The notes beneath the pieces were generated by a model, which saw nothing but the letters and a program-made list of their open reading frames with translations, did not search any database and was not told the DNA's origin. A program made the translations under genes and the position numbers. A DNA stretch of 64,000 nucleotides, taken from NCBI GenBank assembly GCA_964016885.1, contig OZ024751.1:41416001-41480000 (forward strand), given 5' to 3'. The stretch's first letter is position 1, and each line of letters opens with the position of its first letter. This document shows, piece after piece, positions 1,987 through 62,507 of this stretch. This stretch comes from Eledone cirrhosa. Its lineage: Eukaryota.

Positions 1987-3250
1987 TACGAGGGTCGTCT
2001 GAAAAGCTCATAGGATGGAACGTTCGTATGCTGACCAAGATATTCTCATGGAATAACCAAATGAGGTTTATTTTTCAACATAGTCCCTGGAAAGAAACAA
2101 TGCAGTTATTGATAGTCCCTGGAAAGAAACAATGCAGTTATTACAGTTATTGATATTCCCTGGAAAGAAACAATGCAGTTATTACAGTTATTGATATTCC
2201 CTGGAAAGAAACAATGCAGTTATTACAGTTATTGATATTCCCTGGAAAGAAACAATGCAGTTATTACAGTTATTGATAGTCCCTGGAAAAAAACAATGCA
2301 GTTATTACAGTTATTGATAGTCCCTGGAAAGAAACAATGCAGTTATTACAGTTATTGATAGTCCCTGGAAAGAAACAATGCAGTTATTACAGTTATTGAT
2401 ATTCCCTGGAAAGAAACAATGCAGTTATTACAGTTATTGATAGTCCCTGGAAAGAAACAATGCAGTTATTACAGTTATTGATATTCCCTGGAAAGAAACA
2501 ATGCAGTTATTACAGTTATTGATAGTCCCTGGAAAGAAACAATGCAGTTATTACAGTTATTGATAGTCCCTGGAAAGAAACAATGCAGTTATTACAGTTA
2601 TTGATATTCCCTGGAAAGAAACAATGCAGTTATTACAGTTATTGATAGTCCCTGGAAAGAAACAATGCAGTTATTACAGTTATTGATAGTCCCTGGAAAG
2701 AAACAATGCAGTTATTACAGTTATTGATAGTCCCTGGAAAGAAACAATGCAGTTATTACAGTTATTGATATTCCCTGGAAAGAAACAATGCAGTTATTAC
2801 AGTTATTGATAGTCCCTGGAAAGAAACAATGCAGTTATTACAGTTATTGATAGTCCCTGGAAAGAAACAATGCAGTTATTACAGTTATTGATATTCCCTG
2901 GAAAGAAACAATGCAGTTATTACAGTTATTGATAGTCCCTGGAAAGAAACAATGCAGTTATTACAGTTATTGATAGTCCCTGGAAAGAAACAATGCAGTT
3001 ATTACAGTTATTGATAGTCCCTGGAAAGAAACAATGCAGTTATTACAGTTATTGATAGTCCCTGGAAAGAAACAATGCAGTTATTACAGTTATTGATAGT
3101 CCCTGGAAAGAAACAATGCAGTTATTACAGTTATTGATAGTCCCTGGAAAGAAACAATGCAGTTATTACAGTTATTGATAAGAAGACTTAAAATTAATGA
3201 ACGGAAGATTTCACAGCACTAGCGTCACTCCTTCATAGTCAAACTTCGTA
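1987..3250 (+). mobile_element. Mariner-like MITE hosting a minisatellite
   Basis: Starts TA-CGAGGGTCGTCTGAAAAG and ends ...cttcg-TA. Interior matches the other two copies on both sides of the array. Confidence 0.7.
2111..3180. repeat. 41-bp minisatellite, 26 copies
   Basis: Unit gata(g/t)tccctggaaagaaacaatgcagttattacagttatt. 2111 + 26 x 41 = 3177. Confidence 0.97.
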
Positions 3251-9837: not shown

Positions 9838-9881
<44 letters not shown>

Positions 9882-9885
<4 letters not shown>

Positions 9886-10084
9886 CGAAGGAAATGTGGT
9901 AAGGAACCAGGTGGACCATAACGCACCAAAGTACTCAATACTTAGGGTAGTAGAGTGGGTAATAGGAACGAGTAGGACCCCGACGGCTGAGCTCAAGCCG
10001 TTTCGACGGCTAATTCTGGACTAAATTTAGTCCAGAATTAGCCGTCGAAACGGCTTGAGCTCAGCCGTCGGGGTCCTACTCGTT

Positions 10085-10089
<5 letters not shown>
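9882..10089. mobile_element. Fold-back (TA)n-embedded cassette carrying the 3' half of a hammerhead (putative Penelope-like pLTR end)
   Basis: About 140-bp unit plus a perfect palindrome at 9962-10089. GAAA-CGGCT tgagctc AGCCG-TC at 10047-10069. Near-identical copies at 20613-21023, 26963-27066 and 62367-62507. Confidence 0.75.
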
Positions 10090-10141
<52 letters not shown>

Positions 10142-11124
10142 TTTTTTGAAATCCTCTGTTATGTCTTGATGATATTCCTGGTGATTTCATACGAATGAAA
10201 CAGTTCTAGTCCTGTAGAAGTCCTTTCTATATACTAGAGATATTTATTCTCTATCTACATATTTTGTACCTTATTTAACTGACTTTTTTTTCCCGTTTTC
10301 CTTCGAGATATCACCCATGATTATGTATGTATATATGTCTCCCTGTCTGTCTGTATGTATGTGTGTGTGTGTATCTCTGTATGTCTGTATGTATATGTGT
10401 GTATAAAACTTCAGAAGCCATGATACGGTTAAACATTCAAATTAAGGCTTATCTGTTGGTGTTTTTTTTTTTTTTTACAATTTTTAAGTTAAATTCTTTT
10501 TTTCTGTCGTTATAACAAAGAAAGAAAGAAACAAAAAAAAACTTAAAAAAAAAAAAAAAAAAACCCACAAAAGCTGAAATGACAAAAGAATTTCTTTAAC
10601 AATAATATTTCAAAAATACAATTTTCTTCAAGTCTTCAAGACTGAAATGTATAATGACATATTAATAGCAATTCTTCATTTGTAAGTGTTCTTTATCTGA
10701 CCAGCTCCAGGCCATCGGCGTAACAGGTAACTTAGAATATGATATAATAGAAGAAATATACTTATATAGTAATAATAAACCAGCTAGTTCAATTTCAGGA
10801 GAATATGATTTTTGATGAAGTTAAAAATGATTTAAAGGAAATATTTTAAACTTTTTAGTCAAGATGATGTTTTTTTTAGTTTTAGTTTTATTTTATTTCT
10901 TCAAATATTTCTTTGTTATTTTAACACCAACCAAGATAGTTTAGTCTATAAATACACAAGGGACAACTGAATCGATTATATATAATAGAGAAAACATTAA
11001 ATTCGTTTGTATGATATGAACAAAACCTATTTTTAGTTTGTCGAATAACTACGAGAGGCGGTTGAAAAGTTCTTAGTCTGCTACACTATGAAGGAGTTAT
11101 GCTAGAGCTGTGGAATCTTGCGTA

Positions 11125-11432
11125 AAGAGCAACTTGAAATGAAATGTCTTGGTCAAGAACATAACGCACATAACGCATCGCCCGCTCCGGGATTCGAACT
11201 AACAACCTCACGATTAGGAATCCAACTCCTTGCATAGACAGCAACGTGAAATAAAGTGTCTTGGTGAAGAACATAACGCATCGCTCGCTCCGGGAATCGA
11301 ACTCACAACCTCACGATTAGGAATCCAACTCCTTGCATAGACAGCAACGTGAAATAAAGTGTCTTGGTGAAGAACATAACGCATCGCTCGCTCCGGGAAT
11401 CGAACTCACAACCTCACGATTAGGAATCCAAC
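11125..11432 (-). mobile_element. Three tandem 104-bp pieces of SINE family B
   Basis: gcaacgtgaaataaagtgtcttggtgaagaac repeats at 11241 and 11345, with a variant at about 11149. Confidence 0.8.
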
Positions 11433-11675
11433 TAAATAATATTAAAATTAATAACATTAAAATCTGTGAAAGTTTTACTAATATAGAAATACTGAATGAA
11501 AGTGCTCACCAAATAACTTATTGATATTTGTTTCCTCGTTAACCGTATACATTTTGTTCTTGCGTTTTATTCAAAACACCTTAAAAACGTTAAAATCATA
11601 GTTCATTACTTTGTCCAAATACGCGAAATGATTGTAAAATGTTCTCCTTTTTCGTCAATTTTCGTTATATATATA

Positions 11676-13250: not shown

Positions 13251-13259
13251 GATAGTCTA

Positions 13260-13465
13260 TCGACTTTCGTCAAATCGGACCGAGGAAACAATGCTTCCAT
13301 TGGTCTTTCCAATTGCTAATACTATCTATAGGTCGCAGCTCCAGCTAGAAGGAGCAACGTGAAATAAAGTGACTGAAGGACATAGCCCATCGCCTGGTCC
13401 AGGAAACGAACCCAAAACCTAATGATTGTGTATCCAATTCTCTAACAACTCAGCCAAGCAGCCAA
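13260..13465 (-). mobile_element. SINE family B
   Basis: Reverse complement of the 16702-16900 type. Confidence 0.7.
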
Positions 13466-14439: not shown

Positions 14440-14776
14440 GATGAATATAAAATGAAAGTGCTTTTTCTAAAAAAGGAATTAAAAAAAGCACTTTCATTTT
14501 ATATTCATCTTTTTCTACATTTTCTCCGGAATATAATTTATACTCGTTGAGCAAACCTACACATACGCTGTTCATCTCTAACGTGACGATATATTATCAC
14601 TACATTATTGATAACCTGAAATTTTATATATATATATATATATATGCAAAAGTTTTATTTAAGATTGTTGGGTTACAACGAGTAAATATTTTATAACTGA
14701 TATAAAAGCACTCAACAGTTTCTGGAGTAGGTTTACGATATTAAACAAATGGAAACTATATTTATAAAACCATATT

Positions 14777-14842
14777 TATTTCGTTATATATATTTCTGGG
14801 ATATCATATTAAAAATATGGTATGCCTTCCTCAGACAAAATA
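14777..14842 (-). ncRNA. Mirror copy of the 14983-15048 hammerhead, left arm of palindrome
   Basis: Reverse complement of 14983-15048 (tcctcag at 14828-14834). Confidence 0.7.
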
Positions 14843-14982
14843 CAATACATAAGCTGTTTTATAAATAATTAGTGACATACCTTGTAATAATGCAACTTCC
14901 ATTTAAAAAATCAACTTTTTAAATGGAAGTTGCATTATTACAAGGTATGTCACTAATTATTTATAAAACAGCTTATGTATTG

Positions 14983-15048
14983 TATTTTGTCTGAGGAAGG
15001 CATACCATATTTTTAATATGATATCCCAGAAATATATATAACGAAATA
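14983..15048 (+). ncRNA. Minimal hammerhead ribozyme, right arm of palindrome
   Basis: TATTTTGT-CTGAGGA(14991-14997)-stem II-GAAA(15029-15032)-T ATAT A-TA then ACGAAATA. The closing pair of stem II is mismatched. Confidence 0.7.
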
Positions 15049-15089
15049 AATATGGTTTTATAAATATAGTTTCCATTTGTTTAATATCG

Positions 15090-15766: not shown

Positions 15767-15817
<51 letters not shown>

Positions 15818-15819
15818 GA

Positions 15820-15985
15820 GAGTCGGACACCATGCTTTGAAGCATAGTTTTACGGCTCTTTATGATCTGAGTTCAAATTCCGCCGAGGTTAACTTTGCCT
15901 TTCATCCTTACGGGGTCGATAAAATAAAGTACCAGTAATGTACTGGGTAATTGCTGGCCTTGTGCCAAAAGTAGAAACAATTATT
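15820..15985 (+). mobile_element. tRNA-derived SINE family A (other + copies at 32118-32298, 33757-33941, 47865-48048)
   Basis: gttcaaat(t/c)ccgccgaggttaactttgcctttcatccttacggggtcgataaaataaagtaccag...gctggccttgtgccaaaagtagaaac-(att)n. Confidence 0.85.
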
Positions 15986-16605
15986 ATTATTATTTTAGCT
16001 TTCTATCCAAGGGGAAAGTTGGCAGATCGTTAGAATGTTGGATAGAATTGCTTTACGTTATTCATTCCGGCTATTTGTACGTTGAGATCAATACCCGCTG
16101 AATCGATCCCTACCCCAACTCCCCTTCAAATTGCTGGCCTTGTGCCAAATATAGAAACAACTATTATTCGATTTTTATTTCTCGTTCTTCAATTTTCTTT
16201 TAAACATCCTTCCTTTATGCGTTGAACATTTAACCCGAAACTCGGTTTGCGATATTTGCTACACAAATGTCAGACTTAGTTTCTTGTGTAGCCTACAGGC
16301 GACATGATGCTGGGTTCTAGTTCTTCCTACTTGTTAACCTTTTGTTTGAAATATTAAGAGAGCAGAATCTGCTGAAATAAGACGACGAAAAGTCAGAAAC
16401 TAAAAAGAAGATACGTTTAACAATACAACATCTGACTGAATGATATTCCTGAAAACTGATGTGTAGGCGTAGATATTACGTAGAGTGGGTAAAGTGTTAG
16501 CTTCGCAACCAGTTCGTTTGGGTTTGGGGTTCAATCTTACTGCGTGGCAGATTGTGACAAGTGTATTCACACATACACACATACACACATACACACATAC
16601 ACACA

Positions 16606-16701: not shown

Positions 16702-16900
16702 TGAAGGCGCGTGGCTGAGTGGTTAGAGAATTGGATTCACAATCGTGAGGTTGTGAGTTCGTTTCCTGGACCGGGCGATGCGTTATGTCCTTGAGCAGGA
16801 CACTTTATTTCATGTGCTCCTTCTACCTGGAGTTGCGACCGATAGATAGTATTAGCAATTGGAAAGACCAACGGTAACATTGTTTCCTCGGTCATTCGAC
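16702..16900 (+). mobile_element. SINE family B (close copies at 50600-50793 and 61488-61690, both +)
   Basis: gaaggcgcgtggctgagtggttagag...gagttcg...ccttgagcaggacactttatt. Confidence 0.8.
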
Positions 16901-18724: not shown

Positions 18725-19240
18725 CAGAATAAATAATTGTTTCTTACATAGGCACAAGGCCAGCAATTATCTCAGTTCATTACTGGTACTTTATTTTATC
18801 GACCCCGTAAGGATGAAAGGCAAAGTTAACCTCGGCGGGATTTGAACTCAGAATGGCAAGGGCCGTAACTCTATGCGTCAAAGCATGGCGTCCGACCCTC
18901 TACCGATACTGCCAACCCACCGTCAGAATAAATAATTGTTTCTACTTTAGGCACAAGGCCAGCAATTATCCCAGTGTATTACTGGTACTTTATTTTATCG
19001 ACCTCGTAAGGATGAAAGGCAAAGTTAACCTCGGCGGGATTTGAACTCAGAATGGCAAGGGCCGTAACTCTATGCGTCAAAGCATGGCATCCGACCCTCT
19101 ACCGATACTGCCAGAATAAATAATGATTTCTAGTATAGGCACAAGGCCAGCAATTTGGGGGGAGGGTAAAGTCGATTAAATCGATCCCAGTACGTTACAA
19201 GTACTTTATTTTATCGACCCTGTAAGGATGAAAAGCAAGG
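18725..19240 (-). mobile_element. Cluster of three SINE family A copies (two form a 199-bp tandem duplication); other minus copies at 31394-31490, 36000-36155, 41335-41530
   Basis: cagaataaataat units start at 18725, 18924 and about 19112. Confidence 0.85.
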
Positions 19241-20202
19241 TGTGACCTGTGTGGGTGTCTTATGAAAGCTTCCATTTTACTGACTTAGCACATTGTGTGT
19301 CAATGTCATAAGCGGCAATATGTCATATAAGAAAATATCTCACAGCTGGCAACTATTGTAGAGAATCAATGTTTAGTCTCATACACACATACACATACAC
19401 TTATATAGACACATATGCATACACATACACATAAACACACATACACATACTCTTACAGAGACACACATCAACTCAAACTCTCATAAGCATAAACAAGCAC
19501 ACACGCCACACAACACACAGACATATATACACCAGAATACACACACACACACACACACACATACACACCCACAAACCCTCACACACACATACACACATAC
19601 ACACAGACATATAACACCAGAATACACCCCTCACACACACATACACACACACACCACTATACACAAATACACACACACATTGATTCTTTGATGTTCGTAT
19701 TCTGTTACTCTTTGTCCATTGTTGATGATTGAGGTTGAATATGTGTGTGTGTGTATGTGTGTGTATGTGTATGTGTGTGTGTGTGTGTATGTGTGTGTGT
19801 GTATGTGTGTGTCTATGTGTCTATGTCTGTATGTGTGTGTGAGTATGTTGTTGTATATGTGTGTGTGTGTCTGTGTGTCTGTGTGTGTATCTGTTTTACA
19901 GGAATACGCATCACAACACACACACGCACACACACACACACAGTCATACACCCACATACATGTGCACACACAACACCGGGAGCAGCACCACCACAACTAC
20001 ACACAAGCTCCAGTACCACACACACCACTACCACTACAACACACACACCATTATCAACACCACCATCACAACCACCACTACGGTATATCACCATCATACA
20101 CACCCCCACCACCACCAACAACATTACAAACACCATCACCAACAGGTGACATTGTGGTTATATTATTTTAGTTATATAATATAGATACATGTCTAAACGT
20201 GT

Positions 20203-20573: not shown

Positions 20574-20612
<39 letters not shown>

Positions 20613-20616
<4 letters not shown>

Positions 20617-20813
20617 AACCAGTAAGACCCCGACAGCTGAGCTCAAGCCGTTTCGACGGCTAATTCTGGACTCCACAGTCCAGAATTAGCCGTCGAAACG
20701 GCTTGAGCTCAGCTGTCGGGGTCTTACTGGTTCCTATTACCCACTCTACTACCTCAAGTATTGAGTACTTTGGTGCGTTATGGTCCACTTGGTTCCTTAC
20801 CACATTTCCTTCG

Positions 20814-20865
<52 letters not shown>

Positions 20866-21020
20866 CGAAGGAAATGTGGTAAGGAACCAGGTGGACCATA
20901 ACGCACCAAATTACTCAATACTTAGGGTAGTAGAGTGGGTAATAGGAACGAGTAGGACCCCGACGGCTGAGCTCAAGCCGTTTCGACGGCTAATTCTGGA
21001 GTCCAGAAATCCTACTCGTT

Positions 21021-21023
<3 letters not shown>
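20613..21023. mobile_element. Two tail-to-tail copies of the same cassette around a (TA)n tract, each with a fold-back end
   Basis: 20613-20736 is palindromic. 20678-20815 is the inverse of 20862-21000. Short deleted fold-back at 21001-21023. Confidence 0.8.
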
Positions 21024-21074
<51 letters not shown>

Positions 21075-21852: not shown

Positions 21853-22207
21853 TTATTAAATAAATGGAAACTATATTTATAAAACCATATTTATTCACTT
21901 ATATATATTTCAAAGGTACCAAAACTTTGGTACGCTCTCATCAGATAAATTATAAAGTTTGTTTTATAAATATTGACATAACCAAGAAAAAATACCTTAA
22001 CGGTTCAAGTTTTTCCTGGATAGTCAGGAAAAACTATCCAGGAAAAAACTTGAACCGTTAAGGTATTTTTTCTTGGTTATGTCAATATTTATAAAACAAA
22101 CTTTGTATTTTATCTGATGAGAGCGTACCAAAGTTTTGGTACCCTTGAAATATATATAAGTGAATAAATATGGTTTTATAAATATAGTTTCCATTTATTT
22201 AATAACA
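21851..22207. repeat. Long palindrome, arms about 174 bp, same family as 14734
   Basis: Reverse-complement arms about 22025-22033. Shares aaatggaaactatatttataaaaccatatttatt with the 14734 element. Confidence 0.9.
22106..22168 (+). ncRNA. Minimal hammerhead ribozyme, right arm of palindrome (mirror copy on minus strand at about 21890-21952)
   Basis: CTGATGA(22114-22120)-GAGCGTACCAAA gt TTTGGTACCCTT-GAAA(22147-22150)-T ATAT A-TA. Stem I is weak or bulged. Confidence 0.65.
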
Positions 22208-22345
22208 CTGAATATTATACTCGAGAAAATCTGTCGAGTGCTCTGAATCAGTTATAAACATTTATATTTGTTGAATTACCAACTAACTCAAGTATATATG
22301 TGGATATATTCATGTATATGTATGTGTCCGCATGTATCTGTGTGT

Positions 22346-26967: not shown

Positions 26968-27063
26968 AAAAAGTATTGTTTTCCTATTACCCACTCTACT
27001 ACCCTAAGTATCGAGTACCCTGGTGTGTTATGGTCCATCTGGTTCCTTACCACAATTCCTTCG

Positions 27064-27066
<3 letters not shown>
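26963..27066 (+). mobile_element. Truncated copy of the 9882 cassette with a short terminal hairpin
   Basis: ttcctattacccactctactaccctaag...ccttcgttat, preceded by the ataggaaaa/ttttcctat hairpin and flanked by (TA)n. Confidence 0.7.
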
Positions 27067-27111
<45 letters not shown>

Positions 27112-28274
27112 TGATGACATGAAAACCTCAATCTTTCTATTTGTTCTCAAATTTCTTTAATTTAAATGAACGGTGGCGTATTCGTAGTTGTGAGTTAATG
27201 TAAACGTAGTTATGAAACGGTTGAAATAAAAAAGACTTTTGGTGAGTTTTGAACCACTTGGGTGTATAATGTGGAGTTGTTTATTAAGAGTAAAACAAAA
27301 GAAATGCAGCTGTTTGTATTAAAGCAATAGCCATATTAAATGGAATAAACAATACAAAGGAGACTAGAAGCACGTCTTTTTGACCTTTAACGTTAATGTC
27401 TGCCAGATTAAAATTTTACGATAGGATTAGACAAATATTGATCGACCACTTAAAAGATGGAATGAATTCTCTTAAAGTAATTTTCTAATTGATCAATAAT
27501 TAATAATAATAATTTTTTTTTAATATTTGGCATTTAAATCAATTAACAATTAATCAGAATTCGTTCTCATTATATTGCTTTGGTATGAAAGTATTTGTAA
27601 TGTATAAGTCCTTATTGTCTATTATTTCTCTTATGAGAAATGAAAACGAGGAGCTCATTAATTTCAAATATTTCTTGACTTCTATAGATTTAAATAACTC
27701 TTAATTAGGATATTGTCACATAAAAAAATTAAAATGTATGTAAAAAACGTAAACATATTTTGTAAATTGTTTCCAAAATTCCAGATTTCTCTGTTTCTAG
27801 TTTTTGTTTAATTAGCGATGGTACTGTTACAGCGTGATTTAAAAAGGCGTACATGAACCCATAAACATGCACGTAGTCTTCTTTGTTTGTACTGAGTTTA
27901 AAAAACCTCATTAATGTATAGTATTTAGCCAGGCTTATCATATCTACGTGTCTCCTCACGTAACATTTGAACCTTTTGAAATTAGATAGAATGCTAGTTA
28001 CCTGTCAATGGAAAGATAAAACAATCACACGTGTTTGTACTTGCTTACATTTCCCAACGTGTTTAAAATCTCGGTTAAATCTTACTGTAGAGTTTCAGAT
28101 TACCTTATGTAATACATAATAAATAATTAACCACTTATCTAATGTATTGCTATGCAAATTAAACTTGCTATTTTGGTTCTCTAAAAAGACCTCCTTCTGT
28201 TACGAAATACCATGGGATTTTGCACATAGAAAAAATTTCACTCTGAAACACAAACTCGCGTATAGTGTGGAAGG

Positions 28275-29627
28275 CCTGCTGTCACCCATACATACCAGTC
28301 TCCAGTGTCCACGTGACAAGACCTGCTGTCACCCATACATACCAGTCTCCACTGTCCACGTGACAAGACCTGCTGTCACCCATACATACCAGTCTCCACT
28401 GTCCACGTGACAAGACCTGCTGTCACCCATACATACCAGTGTTCAGTGTCCACGTGACAAAACCTGCTGTCACCCAGACATACCAGTGTCCAGTGTCCAC
28501 GTGACAAGACCTGCTGTCACCCAGACATACCAGTCTCTACTGTCCACGTGACAAGACCTGCTGTCACCCAGACATACCAGTCTCTACTGACCACACCACA
28601 AGACCTACTGTCACCCATACATACCAGTCTCCACTGTCCACGTGACAAGACCTGCTGTCACCCAGACATACCAGTCTCTACTGACCACACCACAAGACCT
28701 ACTGTCACCCAGACATACCAGTCTCTACTGACCACACCACAAGACCTGCTGTCACCCAGACATACCAGTCTCTACTGACCACACCACAAGACCTACTGTC
28801 ACCCATACATACCAGTCTCCACTGTCCACGTGACAAGACCTGCTGTCACCCAGACATACCAGTCTCTACTGACCACACCACAAGACCTACTGTCACCCAG
28901 ACATACCAGTCTCTACTGACCACACCACAAGACCTACTGTCACCCAGACATACCAGTCTCTACTGACCACACCACAAGACCTACTGTCACCCATACATAC
29001 CAGTCTCCACTGTCCACGTGACAAGACCTGCTGCCACCCAGACATACTAGTCTCTACTGACCACACCACAAGACCTGCTGTCACCCAGACATACCAGTCT
29101 CTACTGTCCACACCACAAGACCTGCTGTCACCCAGACACACCAGTCTCTACTGACCACACCACAAGACCTGCTGTCACCCAGACATACCAGTCTCCACTG
29201 TCCACACCACAAGACCTGCTGTCACCCAGACATACCAGTCTCTACTGACCACACCACAAGACCTACTGTCACCCAGACATACCAGTCTCTACTGACCACA
29301 CCACAAGACCTACTGTCACCCAGACATATCAGTCTCTACTGACCACCCCACAAGACCTGCTGTCACCCAGACCTACTGTCACCCAGACATACCAGTCTCT
29401 ACTGACTACACCACAAGACCTACTGTCACCCAGACATACCAGTCTCTACTGACCACACCACAAGACCTACTGTCACCCAGGCATACCAGTCTCTACTGAC
29501 CACACCACAAGACCTACTGTCACCCAGGCATACCAGTCTCTACTGACCACATCACAAGACCTACTGTCACCCAGACGTACCAGTCTCTACTGACCACACC
29601 ACAAGACCTACTGTCGCCCAGACATAC
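28275..29627. repeat. 47-bp minisatellite, about 28-29 copies
   Basis: Unit cct(g/a)ctgtcaccca(t/g)acataccagtctc(c/t)actg(tccacgtg/accacacc)acaaga. Confidence 0.95.
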
Positions 29628-29822
29628 CATACCACCCATACCACCGATGTTGTCCAAGGGAAAGACAAAGGCCGATACAGCCTTGCACCAGTGACGTCGT
29701 AACTCATTTCTCCAGCTGAGTGAACTGGAGCAACGTGAAATAAAGTATCTTGCTCAAGGATACAGCCCGGGCTGCTTATCGAATTCACAACCTCACGATT
29801 AAACCCCAACGTTCTAACCCCT
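29628..29822 (-). mobile_element. SINE family B abutting the 47-bp minisatellite
   Basis: Reverse complement similar to 9440-9640. Confidence 0.75.
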
Positions 29823-33627: not shown

Positions 33628-34432
33628 TATATATGCGTATATAATTTTAAAACATACACAGTCTAATCATTTTGTTTGGAAAAATAAGCGATTTTCCCGC
33701 CATCCATCCTCTTCATCTCTTCCTTCCCCTTCTTCTTACAATCACAGCCCTCATCAAGTGGATTGGCAGTATCGGTAGAGGGTCGGACGCCATGCTTTCC
33801 AGCATAGTTACGTCCCTTTACGATCTGAGTTCAAATCCCGCCGAGGTTGACTTTGCCTTTCATCCTTACGGGGTCGATAAAATAAAGTACCAGTAATGCA
33901 CTGGGTAATTGCTGGCCTTGTGCCTAAAGTAGAAACAATTACTGAGTATACTGGAGCAACCTGAAAATGGAGCGTATTTTATTTTCTCAAGAACACAACA
34001 CAGAACTCGAACCTATGACATTAACATCGTTAGTTCAACATCTCAACCATTAGGTCAGACAATTTCACTTTCAATAGTTTCATCCAAAACAAATCAAGAT
34101 AATATAGGAAGAATATAATTATAGCTTCTTATCAATTCTATACGAAGATAAATGCAAATTTTATGCACTAGAATTAAACTCATCTAATCTTCGTTGATAT
34201 AGCCATTGAATACCCCGGAGAAAAGAATAAATTAGAATCATAAACACATATTCTTAGTAATGTTATTAATAACATAGTTACATATCCAGTGAGACATATA
34301 TGGCTATATTTATGCATATATCACCATACAACGTATGTGAACTTTCGTGTGTCTATGTATGTATGGCTACGTATTTATATTATGTACATATATACATGTG
34401 TCGGTGTGTGTATGTATATATACAAATATATG

Positions 34433-47557: not shown

Positions 47558-50274
47558 TATATATATATATATATATATATATACATCCCAGATAGTTAAG
47601 CAGCTGAATGAGACACTTTCATTGGGAGATGAACATTTATTTTTGTACACTATATACCTTGAAGATTCTATTTGAAATGTAAATTGCTGTGAATTCCTTT
47701 AGTCCATTGTCAAATACATCTATATGAACTACGAAGTTTGTTTTTATCAGCCATCATCTAAACTGCGATAGTTCTTTAACTCTTAACGTCTTATATCACA
47801 TGGACTCGCCTTAGCAAGACATTCGTGGAAAGTAAGGTTTAAAACAGTGATAAGACTGCATTCTGGATTGGCAGTATCGGTAGAGGGTCGGACGCCATGC
47901 TTAGCAGCATAGAGTTACGGCCTTTATGATCTGAGTTCAAATCCCGCCGAGGTTAACTTTGCTGTTCATCTTTACGGGGTCGATAAAATAAAGTGCCAGT
48001 AATACACTGGGATAATTGCTGGCCTTGTGACAAAAGTAGAAACAATTATATTAGCAATGTAAGTCTTTACGCTAATATTTAACTTTTCGCAATCATCTGT
48101 TTAATAGTAAAGATAATACAGACATCGGAATTAAATTTAAAATATTCTTTGCTCAATCATTACAGAGTGTTATGAGTTAAGTCGCTATCACATTAGGGAC
48201 CTTGTTTACAAATAACTATTCTATTTATCCCTTGCATATAAACAACCTTCTTTAACACCATGTATATATATTATCAATATAAGTTTATCAGCCCTGTTTT
48301 TGATAACACTCCCAAACTATGCGTATGTATAGCTATTTCTTTTTCTAACACATTCAGCCCACACAAAGCAATAAGATCACTAAAATACAAGGGAAACATA
48401 ATTCAAGTAGAGAGAAGATGGCGATTGATGTTGCTTTAAAATATTTGAACATTGAAGCTATTAAGACAGCGAGAAGGCGAAAGAGTATTCCATAGAAAAG
48501 ATGTGCGAAGGAAGAAATTATCAGAATAAAATTTATAATAGTATTTAGAAACTTCTGCTGTAAAGGGGGTGAGATCTAGCTGCCGATCTGGTACAACTAC
48601 AGACGCCATATTGCTTTATTTTGAAGTTAGGGGTGGAAATACTATCGTGTTACTACAAGTAGGGCTTAACTTCTTTATTAGTAGGTTATCTAAACTAAGG
48701 GAGACTAGTCAAGGATTATCCCTTTTATAACTTTTACATCACGCTTCTACTTGGGGATCAGCAGTATCATTTCTATATAATCCACTCCATTAGACTTTCA
48801 CATAATAACAGTTTATAGAACCTGAGAATTTATTCTATTCAAAAGTGGTGTTATTGTCCTTAACATCATAAACATCTCCGCCCATTCTGTAGGAAAATCT
48901 AAGATTTCTATTTTTCAATATTAATGACTTCCGTGCCGATCATTTACCCAATTCTTGTCCAGAAGAACTGTCATCATATGGGAATCTACGTCAGTCCATA
49001 TTTGTTCTGTATACACGTACTTGAAGATAAACATTAATCGTGTCTATCCCATCAGTCGGAAAGAAGGTATAAGATCTATGGTTAATAATCCTCTTCCAGA
49101 CACTAAATAAAGTAAAGATCTTTAAGCACTAAAGCACATAATGAGATAAGTTTCGTATCAAGAAATGCACCTGATAAACCTACACAGTAGCTAGATTTGA
49201 AGAAACATAGGCAGTTATAGTTTGGACGAATATTATGCAAATTGATCCTAATTCTTGATGAGGTCGTGGAGGTCACACGACGTATCTTGGGAATTTTGAA
49301 ACTTAGCAGAGCCTATCCATATCCATATCCCCATCAAAGTCAGCTCATGAAAGTTTCAAGAATTCCACAGAATATTGATTTTCTACTTTGTCAAAATATT
49401 ACAATTTTATATGTCATGGATATGAAATTTGACCTGTAGCCTGAATACAAATACATGATTTTCTGGCTGCAGATAGTGAGGGTGCCATAAACACAACCTA
49501 ATTATACCTGACAAATACGAACTGGTAAGTGACAGAATATTATTAAGATTAAACTATCAAACACGAAACGAACGGAGTGGACGTATTATACGGATTTAAC
49601 AATATAATTAAAATCATATTGATATCTGAGAAACATGATCTTTTTTTCGAATTATAATCAAAACAATAATTGACACCTTTAAAAATACATTCACCAATTC
49701 CTAATAACAAGAGACATGTATGGGCTTTAGAGAAAAATCGATATTAGAGTCGAGAATGTTTTGTAGATTTCTATGACGTGGACGTTTGTGTTTGATCTTA
49801 GTCGCTTCCTATAAAGAATGTCCCAGTTGATTCGATCAATTGCTCGTGAAATTAAAATCCAGGTGGCTGAGTATTCCACAGACACGTGTACCCTTAACGT
49901 AGTTCTCAGAGAGATTCAACATAATATACTGTGTAACAATGCTCCTTTGAATTGCAGGTAAAACTCATTTGTTTGCCAGGTGAAAAAATACATTAGACAA
50001 TACAGTTAAATATATACAATGATTGAAAACAAATCGATATGTTCCCGATTGGAAATACTTATCTGTTCAATCAGGTAAACCTGGTGTTAAACAACAGCAA
50101 CAACTTAACACATATACAAATGCACACAAGTATGCGTATATATACACATGCATACACACACACATATGTATATATATATGTATATATACCACTTATATGT
50201 ATAGACAACAACTATAACTTAACTCATATACAAATATATATATATATACACACACTTGCACACATACAAACACA

Positions 50275-50559: not shown

Positions 50560-50604
<45 letters not shown>

Positions 50605-50904
50605 GGTGCGTGGCTGAGTGGTAAGAGAATTGGATTCACAATTGTGAGGTTATAGGTTCGATTGCTGGACCAGATGATGCGTTATGTCCTTGGGCAAGAC
50701 ACTTTACTTCACGTTGCTCCTTCTATCTGGAGTTGCGACCGATAGATGGTACTAGCAATTGGAAAGAGCAACGGAAACAATGTTTCCGTTCGTCTATATA
50801 TATATATATATATATATACATTCATTGAAGCTTGGTTGGTTCACCACTGGATAGAACTTTAAGGGGATTTCACCAGTCCGACCTCCTTCTGTCATTTATT
50901 CAAA

Positions 50905-52737: not shown

Positions 52738-54530
52738 AAATATATATATTTCTTAAATATATATTTCTTAAATATATATTTCTTAAATATATATTTCTTA
52801 AATATATATTTATTAAATATATATTTATTAAATATGTATTTCTTAAATATATATTTCTTAAATATATATTTCTTAAATATATATTTCTTAAATATATATT
52901 TCTTAAATATATATTTCTTAAATATATATTTCTTAAATATATATTTCTTAAATATGTATTTCTTAAATATATATTTATTAAATATATATTTATTAAATAT
53001 GTATTTCTTAAATATATATTTATTAAATATATATTTATTAAATATATATTTATTAAATATGTATTTCTTAAATATATATTTATTAAATATATATTTATTA
53101 AATATATATTTATTAAATATATATTTATTAAATATATATTTCTTAAATATATATTTCTTAAATATATATTTCTTAAATATATATTTCTTAAATATATATT
53201 TCTTAAATATGTATTTCTTAAATATGTATTTCTTAAATATATATTTCTTAAATATATATTTATTAAATATATATTTATTAAATATATATTTATTAAATAT
53301 ATATTTCTTAAATATATATTTCTTACATATGTATTTATTAAATATGTATTTCTTAAATATGTATTTCTTAAATATATATTTATTAAATATGTATTTCTTA
53401 AATATATATTTCTTAAATATATATTTCTTAAATATGTATTTCTTAAATATGTATTTCTTAAATATGTATTTATTAAATATGTATTTCTTAAATATATATA
53501 TATTAAATATGTATTTCTTAAATATGTATTTCTTAAATATATATTTATTAAATATATATTTATTAAATATGTATTTCTTAAATATATATTCCTAAAATAT
53601 ATATTTCTGCAATATATATTTCTTAAATATATATACAGTGTAAATCCGTTATAATGAAATTCATGAGGTCTAAAAAAAAGTTCGTTGTAATGAAAAATTC
53701 TTTTTAACGAGATCGACCTAACAAATCGAGCGTGTGGATTGAAAAGAATTTCATTATACTTAAAAATTCGTTATAATGGTATACGTTTTAACGGAATTTT
53801 ACCTGTATTTCTTAAATATGCATTTCTTAAATATTTATTTTTTAAATATATATTTATTAAATATGCATTTCTTAAATATATATTTATTAAATATATATTT
53901 CTTCAATATATATTTCTTAAATATATATTTCTTAAATATATATTTCTTAAATATATATTTCTTAAATATATATTTATTAAATACATATTTTGTAAATATA
54001 TATTTCTTAAATATATATTTCTTCAATATATATTTCTTAAATATATATTTCTTAAATATATATTTCTTAAATATATATTTCTTAAATATATATTTATTAA
54101 ATACATATTTTGTAAATATATATTTCTTAAATATATATTTCTTCAATATATATTTCTTAAATATATATTTCTTAAATATATATTTCTTAAATATATATTT
54201 CTTAAATATATATTTATTAAATATATATTTCTTAAATATATATTTATTAAATATATATTTCTTCAATATATATTTATTAAATATATATTTATTAAATATA
54301 TATTTCTTCAATATATATTTCTTAAATATATATTTATTGAATATATATTTCTTAATTATATATTTGTTAAATATATATTTATTAAATTTATATTTCTTAA
54401 ATATATATTTCTTAAATATGTATTTCTTAAATATATATTTCTTAAATATATATTTATTAAATATGTATTTCTTAAAAATGTATTTCTTAAATATATATTT
54501 CTTAAATATATATTTATTATATATATATCT
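52738..54530. repeat. 15-bp minisatellite t(c/a)ttaaatat(a/g)tatt, two blocks
   Basis: Tandem units give the KYIFL pseudo-ORFs. Split at 53636-53805. Confidence 0.97.
53636..53805. mobile_element. pogo/Tigger-like MITE, 170 bp
   Basis: TA-CAGTGTAAATCCGTTATAA ... TTTTAACGGAATTTTACCTG-TA, with internal cgttataa repeats. Confidence 0.7.
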
Positions 54531-56244: not shown

Positions 56245-56432
56245 AATTGTTTCTACTTTTGGCACAAGGCCAGCAATTACCCAGTACATTACTGGTACTT
56301 TATTTTATCGACTCCGTAAGGATGAAAGGCAAAGTTAACCTCGGCGGGATTTGAACTCAGAACACAAAGGGCCGTAACTCTTTGCTGCAAAGCATGGTGT
56401 CCGACCCTCTACCGATACTGCCAAACCACCGC
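56245..56432 (-). mobile_element. Full-length SINE family A
   Basis: Reverse complement of 56774-56965 with few differences. Confidence 0.85.
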
Positions 56433-56773
56433 CCCTTTATATATATTTATATATATATATTTATATATTATGAACGTGCATATATCTCGCTGTGGGTATA
56501 TATGTTCAATATTCTTTGATTGGTTTGTTGATATCCGTCATTGGCCACCAGCCATGTTGATGAACGGCCTTCGAGGAATTAGTTGAACATGTTACCTCAA
56601 TACATAGGAGATTAATTACCTGCTTTTTCTGATCACCGAGAGAGAGAGAAAGGGAGAGAGAATGTTTATAGCTACACCCTTTTATTGGCTGATAAGAAAT
56701 GTAATGAAGTTCTTCCTATTATTTTATACTAAGTGCATTTAATTTCAGATTAGAGAGCATTATTATTAACCAT

Positions 56774-56965
56774 GTGGCGGTGGATTGGCAGTATCAGTAG
56801 AGGGTCGGACGCCATGCTTTCTAGCATAGTTACGTCCCTTTACGATCTGAGTTCAAATCCCGCCGAGATTGACTTTGCCTTTCATCCTTACGGGGTCGAT
56901 AAAATAAAGTACCAGTAATGCACTGGTTAATTGCTGGCCTTGTGCCTAAAGTAGAAACAATTATT
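56774..56965 (+). mobile_element. Full-length SINE family A
   Basis: gtggcggtggattggcagtatc...gagttcaaatccc...gtagaaacaattattatt. Confidence 0.85.
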
Positions 56966-57066
56966 ATTAACCATGTTCCCAACAAATGCACTTTTTCTTT
57001 CGCTTGTACTAGTATATGTCCCAGTATAGCTACTACGCTCACACATGTTTACACACACACACACTC

Positions 57067-61389: not shown

Positions 61390-61686
61390 GCAAAAACGTT
61401 AACACCTACCCACACATCGAGTGCTCAGGTTGTTGGACCAACGGGAACATAAGAGGTTACTATATATAACGCTATATATATATATATGGCCGAGTGGTTA
61501 GATAATTGGATTCGCAATTATGAGGTTGTGAGTTCGATTCCTGGACCGGGCGATACATTATGTCCTTGAGCAAGACACTTTATTTCACCTTGCTCTTTCT
61601 GCCTAGAGTTGCGAGCGATAGATAGTACTAGCAAATAGAAAGACCGACGAAAACATTGTTTACTCGGCCCGATTTGACGAAAGTCG

Positions 61687-61738
<52 letters not shown>

Positions 61739-62366: not shown

Positions 62367-62369
<3 letters not shown>

Positions 62370-62504
62370 TCCAGAATTAGCCGTCGAAACGGCTTGAGCT
62401 CAGCCGTCGGGGTCCTACTCGTTCCTATTACCCACTCTACTACCCTAACTATTGAGTACGTTGGTGCGTTATGGTCCACCTGGTTCCTTACCACATTTCC
62501 TCCG

Positions 62505-62507
<3 letters not shown>
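62367..62507 (+). mobile_element. Single-arm copy of the 9882 cassette
   Basis: cagtccagaattagccgtcgaaacggc...ccgttat between two (TA)n tracts. Confidence 0.8.

Follow-up and report, generated by a model that had tools for sequence, protein, structure and literature searches.

Hydra clade C-terminal EN+ Penelope-like elements (PLEs), such as Hydra-1_Obim, are described as carrying RT, linker, and GIY-YIG regions in a single ORF, using a (TA)n target, and having, close to the 3' end, a type I hammerhead (Craig et al. 2021, PMC8557442). Insertions of EN+ PLEs are described with head-to-head arms, a tail on one arm, partial tandems, and pseudo-LTRs (pLTRs) (PMC8557442, PMC3846280), and the published reading of their junction palindromes is self-priming (PMC3846280). 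In the cited passages, the function of the hammerhead in EN+ PLEs (PMC8557442) and the regeneration of the pLTR (PMC2377424) are both stated as open. Work on Poseidon of Anolis (PAc; Frangieh et al. 2024, PMC11167929) found hammerhead cleavage to be dispensable in vitro. The element described here, its layout, and its U3-A8 hammerhead core are already known kinds; a literature search (open-licence full text and bioRxiv) found no 5' pile-up inside a PLE hammerhead, no strong-stop cDNA, and no twin priming for PLEs.

The window, that is, the whole 64-kb stretch of DNA that was analysed, contains several copies of a short cassette, which was numbered from q1, the G of GTCCAGAAT (window 10030 on the plus strand and 10021 on the minus strand), with q0 as the preceding A. 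The features were read from the sequence, and the plus-strand hammerhead half was delimited by folding the complete motif of an intact unit.

9839..9884, no strand: (TA)n target, left side
9884..10025, minus strand: long arm q-3..q138, including the 80-nt tail; 97.8% identical to the copy at 62369 and matching the 3' end of the 3,531-bp unit
9977..10012, minus strand: the long arm's 3' hammerhead half, with the predicted cut after 9982
10023..10029, no strand: head-to-head junction, a loop-less palindrome centred on 10025/10026, inside the q-4..q7 hot spot
10026..10089, plus strand: tail-less short arm q-3..q60, ending at the recurrent 3' terminus q60
10039..10074, plus strand: 3' hammerhead half
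10088..10137, no strand: (TA)n target, right side
20612..20815: second copy with two arms, q60..q1 on the minus strand (20612-20671) and q0..q138 on the plus strand, separated by a 5-nt spacer
20864..21025: third copy with two arms, q138..q2 on the minus strand and, on the plus strand, q0..q8 joined to q45..q60
26981..27065, plus strand: fifth copy, from q54, with a 10-nt inverted stub before its start
62368..62506, plus strand: solo copy q0..q138, flanked by (TA)n tracts

On the plus strand, the 3' hammerhead half consists of the 3' strand of stem II (10039-10046), GAAA (10047-10050), and stem III, with predicted cleavage after C 10069 and the 3' strand of stem I at 10070-10074. The first-pass annotation had recognized this half, which indeed occupies 10047-10074 and has its mirror image on the minus strand, and it was also right that four copies in the window start or turn at one place without the 5' half, between q-3 and q2 (10025/10026, 20677, 21000/21001, and 62368). 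The youngest-subfamily variants were present on both arms of the 20612..20815 copy, and the plus arm of the 20864..21025 copy had an internal deletion (q8 joined to q45). Full-length copies were 93-98% identical to the 62369 copy.

Exact genome matches of the 18-mer q4-21 from the 3' hammerhead half numbered 52,528, compared with 0 for the reversed control, indicating that this half is non-random. The tail 20-mer had 26,858 exact matches in the 3.0-Gb animal genome, whose TA-rich repeats suggest a cephalopod host, that is, about 27,000 tail copies; the ribozyme 5' half matched at no fewer than 4,875 places and the tail joined to the ORF at 326, each with 0 matches for the reversed control. Its coding parent is a young, apparently active Hydra-clade PLE, of which the cassette forms the 3' end. 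Upstream continuation was seen in 4 of the first 30 genome matches sampled, and these 30 loci were left out of the rate estimates because their query began at q1 and was biased. Locus L031 comprised an inverted, truncated, tail-less copy, one pLTR, an RT-endonuclease ORF in a decayed state, and a tailed 3' pLTR, and six arrays gave a unit of about 3.53-3.55 kb. The parent unit is 3,531 bp long with an intact 717-aa RT-endonuclease ORF that starts at q231. In one array, four units were 99.97-100% identical and each carried an intact 717-aa ORF; such near-identical head-to-tail arrays suggest rolling-circle or multimeric templates and very recent activity. The (TA)n target adjoined nearly all of 100 sampled 3' ends, and partial tandems or pLTRs, an inverted 5'-truncated copy, and a one-sided tail were present in L031, the six arrays, and the long two-armed insertions, as in published EN+ PLE insertions.

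Head-to-tail arrays of the 3.53-kb unit were located at L161/L162 (G000:C1:437196000-437215800) and also at L163-L169. At L163/L164 (G000:C1, near 91489000-91492300), the array carried at its 5' end more than 55 tandem repeats of a 55-bp piece of the ORF, a pattern like that of repeated RT slippage. Readings of the cassette as a MITE, a SINE, or a retrozyme were dropped once the coding parent was found; with regard to a non-LTR retrozyme, the short copies lack the 5' half and the tandem unit is protein-coding rather than non-coding.

The Hydra-clade assignment was made from motifs read by eye, with the reference sequences compared as published text. YRDD and IY..YIG were read in the 717-aa ORF against the Hydra alignment, together with DKT rather than DKG (HSDKTG in P0001), RWR where the Hydra clade has RWK, a linker CNCPDRSICP that fits CxCX5C, and CNLC and CKH, which fit CxxC and CxH around E/N; CCHH was missing, and a single Cys lay between IY and YIG. 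The DKT, the linker, the CxxC and CxH, and the missing CCHH match the definition of the clade in the cited text (PMC8557442), and RWR is RWK-like. The motifs of this element also align by eye with the published text of Hydra-1_Obim, and the two are different families. Pfam and PDB sequence searches with the 717-aa ORF returned zero matches. The 3.53-kb unit is larger than published Hydra families, which are given as generally under 3 kb, and the 80-nt tail is longer than the 30-40 nt given as typical of the clade (PMC8557442).

Within the 1.15-kb 3' UTR/pLTR, a donor-like motif at q-1083 and a polypyrimidine-CAG acceptor-like motif at q-133 (L161 about 6674 and 7625) are kept in several subfamilies, and the interval between them may be a Penelope-type intron of about 950 nt. 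A genome search for spliced copies with one donor-acceptor pair gave 0 matches, a result that is uninformative since PLEs retain introns. In the window, a family of SINE-like repeats about 190 bp long, whose 5' part resembles a tRNA (15810-15989, 18732-19241, 33757-33941, 47864-48060, 56246-56433, and 56776-56969), has its 3' ~50 bp in common with a stretch in the PLE 3' UTR (about 81-87%).

The long copies carry a complete type I hammerhead motif with a U3-A8 core and a long stem II. It runs from ACCCC through UUGA-N-AA (N = G, U or C) into an 8-bp stem II with one bulge, and the stem II strand is followed by an insertion of about 37 nt, GAAA (q18-21), stem III with its palindromic loop, GUC ending at q40, and GGGGU (q41-45); the predicted ribozyme cut falls after q40. 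The earlier expectation that full copies would have a 5' half and a stem I partner upstream was correct, but the core reads UUGAGAA or UUGAUAA, or CUGAGAA in one subfamily, and not CUGANGA as had been supposed, with a U3-A8 pair in place of C3-G8. Searches for CUGANGA miss this ribozyme. The stem II that had been proposed, gacggctaattctggact and its mirror, turned out to be the inversion junction and not a native structure. U3-A8 hammerheads are known from Schistosoma PLEs (PMC4209133), and the U3-A8 core is reported as active in vitro (PMC3088659). As described, the Cercyon PLEs of Schistosoma (Cervera and de la Pena 2014, PMC4209133) share the U3-A8 covariation, the long helix II, and the palindromic stem III element, whereas stem III here is a full hairpin of 5-6 bp, so that folding as a monomer is possible. 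The U3-A8 core with the ~37-nt stem II insertion also differs from the Hydra hammerheads listed in the cited source, all of which begin with ctga and have a short loop 2 (PMC8557442).

The MFE fold of the youngest subfamily had the type I three-stem topology, with a stability no higher than that of shuffles (z = 0.50), and the folds of three other subfamilies differed, with a rival hairpin at q11-26. Rfam gave no hammerhead match for the full hammerhead region, and in the Rfam scan of the window, the best 150 of 278 matches were to microsatellite or palindrome, below the gathering score. The abundant CUGAGAA subfamily (L008, L154, L198, and others) has a C3-A8 mismatch and a predicted weaker ribozyme and was amplified nonetheless, providing a natural control for the role of cleavage.

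To score 5' ends, we used the first 100 listed matches of the tail 20-mer, all on contig 1 within its first 23.5 Mb; anchoring in the tail leaves the sample free of selection on the 5' end. The direct arms of 53 of the 100 copies started in q-4..q7, a 12-nt segment of loop II, whereas 10 ran through the whole ribozyme (start upstream of q-61) and 37 started downstream, and scoring against another reference gave 54, 10, and 36 of 100. The earlier statement that the family always breaks here was thus too strong, as the window copy at 26981, which begins at q54, also shows; its underlying claim of non-uniform breakpoints was upheld, with a stop rate of 0.070 per base in q-4..q7 versus 0.003-0.010 elsewhere. 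The upstream edge was sharp: 53 of the 63 copies reaching q7 had stopped by q-4, and none of the 10 survivors stopped in q-61..q-5. A small rise in stops occurred at q38-44 (6/82). Most of the 57 scored inverted arms also ended in the q-4..q7 window, and the hot spot recurred in every subfamily scored (18/21, 18/22, 6/7, 2/2, and 1/1, with 8/10 for unassigned copies), including the C3-A8 mismatch subfamily. This concentration of 5' ends within a 12-nt segment of the ribozyme sets the family apart from the EN+ PLE insertions described as typical.

Arms that passed the hot spot (n = 63) had 5' ends from -82 to -3201, three of them reaching the locus edge, and showed no second peak; a second hot spot suspected near q-700 was accordingly dropped. 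Hot-spot starts were found in 6 of 27 ORF-linked matches, a set in which 3 of 30 loci had been collapsed as identical array units. In three sequencing runs (kind unrecorded, from one sample, and maybe the assembly's own), read depth changed about tenfold in a step at the hot spot and the splice joint was absent; given their possible origin, these runs carry no weight as support here.

A second (TA)n-targeted family with head-to-head arms lies at 14676-15086, 21854-21895, and 22086-22273 of the window. It has a minimal hammerhead-like motif (CUGAUGA, stem, GAAA, palindromic UA loop) and 45,152 exact 24-mer matches in the genome, and in the manner of pLTRs some copies run on beyond the 3' end into unique sequence. 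In this family, 42 of 45 arms were copied through the motif (heterogeneous subfamilies, and arms not all independent), indicating that hammerhead stem II is not a general breakpoint here.

Long two-armed insertions in which both ends could be scored had two fixed 3' ends, one per arm, at q57-60 and q137-140 in either orientation. These ends fit the two internal RT start sites that bound the tail of PAc in vitro (PMC11167929). The AT-rich target of PAc, both strands of which are cleaved and extended in vitro, is a further likeness; however, PAc belongs to another clade, and the ORF here starts at q231, well past both sites. We infer that in the window the long arm (9884..10025) was primed at the downstream fixed site and the short arm (10026..10089) at the upstream one.

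In agreement with the published reading of PLE palindromes (PMC3846280), the first-pass annotation had proposed self-priming of the cDNA at the stem II hairpin, with copy-back along its own strand. Such folding back would account for arm sequences that are nearly always concordant and arm ends that often lie close together, and the predicted snap-back junction of the native distal hairpin was found at two loci genome-wide (one loop spelling tested), set against 52,528 arm matches. The q60 arm was sometimes much longer than, or non-overlapping with, the other arm (L173, L198, L202, L049, and L058); it carries sequence that its partner lacks and is therefore not a copy-back product, and the non-nested L173 and L202 contradict fold-back as a general mechanism. 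Direct arms of long arrays end at q60 as well, which marks it as a start site rather than a copy-back end. Junctions overlapped by 0-2 nt, contained inserts that were non-templated or had a local template, or formed palindromes without a loop, and the hot spot persisted (6/7) in the subfamily with a weakened distal hairpin. Self-priming is not supported and appears very improbable; the data fit a separate priming event for each arm better and argue against self-priming as the source of PLE palindromes.

Diagnostic variants were common to both arms in 69 of 75 strand readings, compared with a shuffled mean of 24; because most insertions were read twice, this corresponds to about 35 of 38 insertions concordant. 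Private variants were common to both arms at L174 and L198, and 62 distinct junctions were present among the 75 readings. The two target strands thus appear to share one RNA as template, or to use RNAs of a single locus, with the cDNA ends then joined.

The best reading of the hot spot is that it marks the main template RNA's 5' end and that the short copies are strong-stop cDNAs, to which we assign a probability of roughly 0.55 on the sequence evidence. The endonuclease would nick both strands of (TA)n, each 3' OH would prime internally on the same RNA, one per fixed site, and both cDNAs would run off the RNA 5' end near q-4..q1 and then be end-joined head to head. An RNA beginning inside loop II would lack the ribozyme 5' half and would not cut itself near its own start, and cutting at q40 by the complete hammerhead of the following pLTR would make the RNA 3' end. 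That cut would leave a 40-nt terminal repeat onto which the strong-stop cDNA could jump, giving pLTRs and tandems; long arms and arrays could come from these terminal-repeat jumps or from multimeric or circular RNA.

Junctions at which copying restarted had 35 genome matches, of which 30 were fetched and 19 parsed, the unparsed ones being inverted-arm variants, one duplicate, and mutated copies. At L248 and L268, which belong to two subfamilies, the cDNA reached A(q0), added G and 3 or 9 non-templated bases (including an A-tract at L268), and resumed exactly at q40, running through an intact hammerhead into the 3' UTR and extending upstream by at least 1.8 kb and 0.5 kb, respectively. L255 resumed at q52 via microhomology. 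The other restarts (16/19) re-copied a short piece with no second passing of q-4, in line with run-off. The donor position was q40 in 5 of 19 restarts (p about 0.001 if uniform over 22 positions; one with 3-nt microhomology). End-to-end template jumps by R2 RT are reportedly known, and the joints at these two loci suggest the expected footprint of a jump from the RNA 5' end to the ribozyme-cut 3' end, as well as cleavage in vivo. The cited text on PAc reports that RNA ends at the cleavage site were not found (PMC11167929), whereas two junctions here map to the predicted site.

Several observations bear on whether the RNA truly ends at q0. The edge A(q-4) lies in TCATTT and the modal A(q0) in TTAGTC or TCAGTC, hexamers that resemble the Drosophila initiator consensus, TCAKTY; this post hoc likeness is a weak argument for an RNA start here. 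Among the matches listed, 46 of 100 5' halves lay in head-to-head pairs, so that passing of q0 is common to both arms. Passing was also commoner on a second round, in ORF-linked copies (11/17 versus 10/63; Fisher p = 0.0002), and together these results are as expected if some templates end at q0 and others are continuous. The alternative is that the RNA continues through loop II and that RT stalls at q0, at the stem II extension or a bound protein, before the cDNAs are joined. The hot spot does lie on the 3' arm of the predicted distal hairpin, restarts pass q0 at the same rate as first passes (3/19, 16%), as a constant stall predicts, and the arms are often coupled far upstream too (-299/-304, -93/-82, and -134/-124), so coupling alone needs no RNA end. 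A stall is, however, at odds with the second-round excess of passing, with a hot spot that stays where the 5' arm of the hairpin is mutated, with the absence of a similar peak at the base of the stronger stems I-III, and with near-identical arrays that pass the site at least four times in succession. We consider it unlikely and rank it after run-off at an RNA start.

The run-off reading has its own difficulties. The peak is broad (12 nt), the jump footprint comes from two loci, and the C3-A8 mismatch subfamily has the same hot spot, all of which count against it. In four of the q40-donor or near-q40 restarts (L241, L263, L265, and L269), the short q0-q40 piece stood alone, which would need cleavage in trans or re-annealing. 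A cap-derived extra G was not above background: G:C was 22:10 after pure TA runs among the 100 matches listed, and the window background was 217:42 after ATATAT and 104:239 after TATATA. In D. virilis Penelope, the start is described as lying upstream of an intron whose end is at helix I (PMC2377424, PMC4209133); here, the intron-like interval between q-1083 and q-133 means that the actual RNA start could lie far upstream.

A further alternative accepts a real RNA 5' end at q0 and attributes it to processing rather than to transcription start, by a nuclease cut in loop II or by Dicer-type cutting of hairpin transcripts from non-autonomous palindromic masters. Run-off, arm coupling, and the unclear cap-G would be accounted for equally well, and short palindromes number tens of thousands. 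Copies of a few masters would not be expected to have mostly unique junctions (62 distinct in 75 strand readings), and the hot-spot starts in 6 of 27 ORF-linked matches and the G before A(q0) at both jump loci (L248 and L268) likewise speak against processing. It ranks below the stall and seems quite improbable.

In LTR retroelements, minus-strand strong-stop DNA arises by internal priming near the RNA 5' end, run-off, and transfer to the 3' terminal repeat. Run-off from an RNA start in loop II could be part of a cycle that works alike, although the element is not a member of that group: a promoter in loop II would disarm the 5' hammerhead, the intact 3' copy would cut to make the RNA end, and RT would jump from the capped 5' end to this ribozyme-made end, giving pLTRs. 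Unlike in LTR elements, synthesis would be target-primed at DNA nicks, with no tRNA primer, integrase, or true LTR, and the 3' end would be made by the ribozyme. This complete cycle is put forward tentatively and is probably not correct in full; if true, it would assign a definite function to the PLE hammerhead and account for how pLTRs are regenerated. An RNA start in loop II would in itself give the ribozyme a testable job, that of cutting the far end of the RNA. With its intact ORF and tens of thousands of insertion footprints, this young family yields nucleotide-level predictions for hammerhead function and pLTR regeneration, namely an RNA start at q-4..q1, an RNA end at q40, and two priming sites on one RNA.

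The window also contains other repeats. A second SINE-like family of about 190 bp occurs at 11117-11434, where it is triplicated in tandem, and at 13259-13460, 16704-16893, 50603-50787, and 61487-61688. Minisatellite arrays, whose repeat units measure 82 bp, 94 bp, and about 15 bp, occupy 2080-3180, 28271-29629, and 52825-54490.
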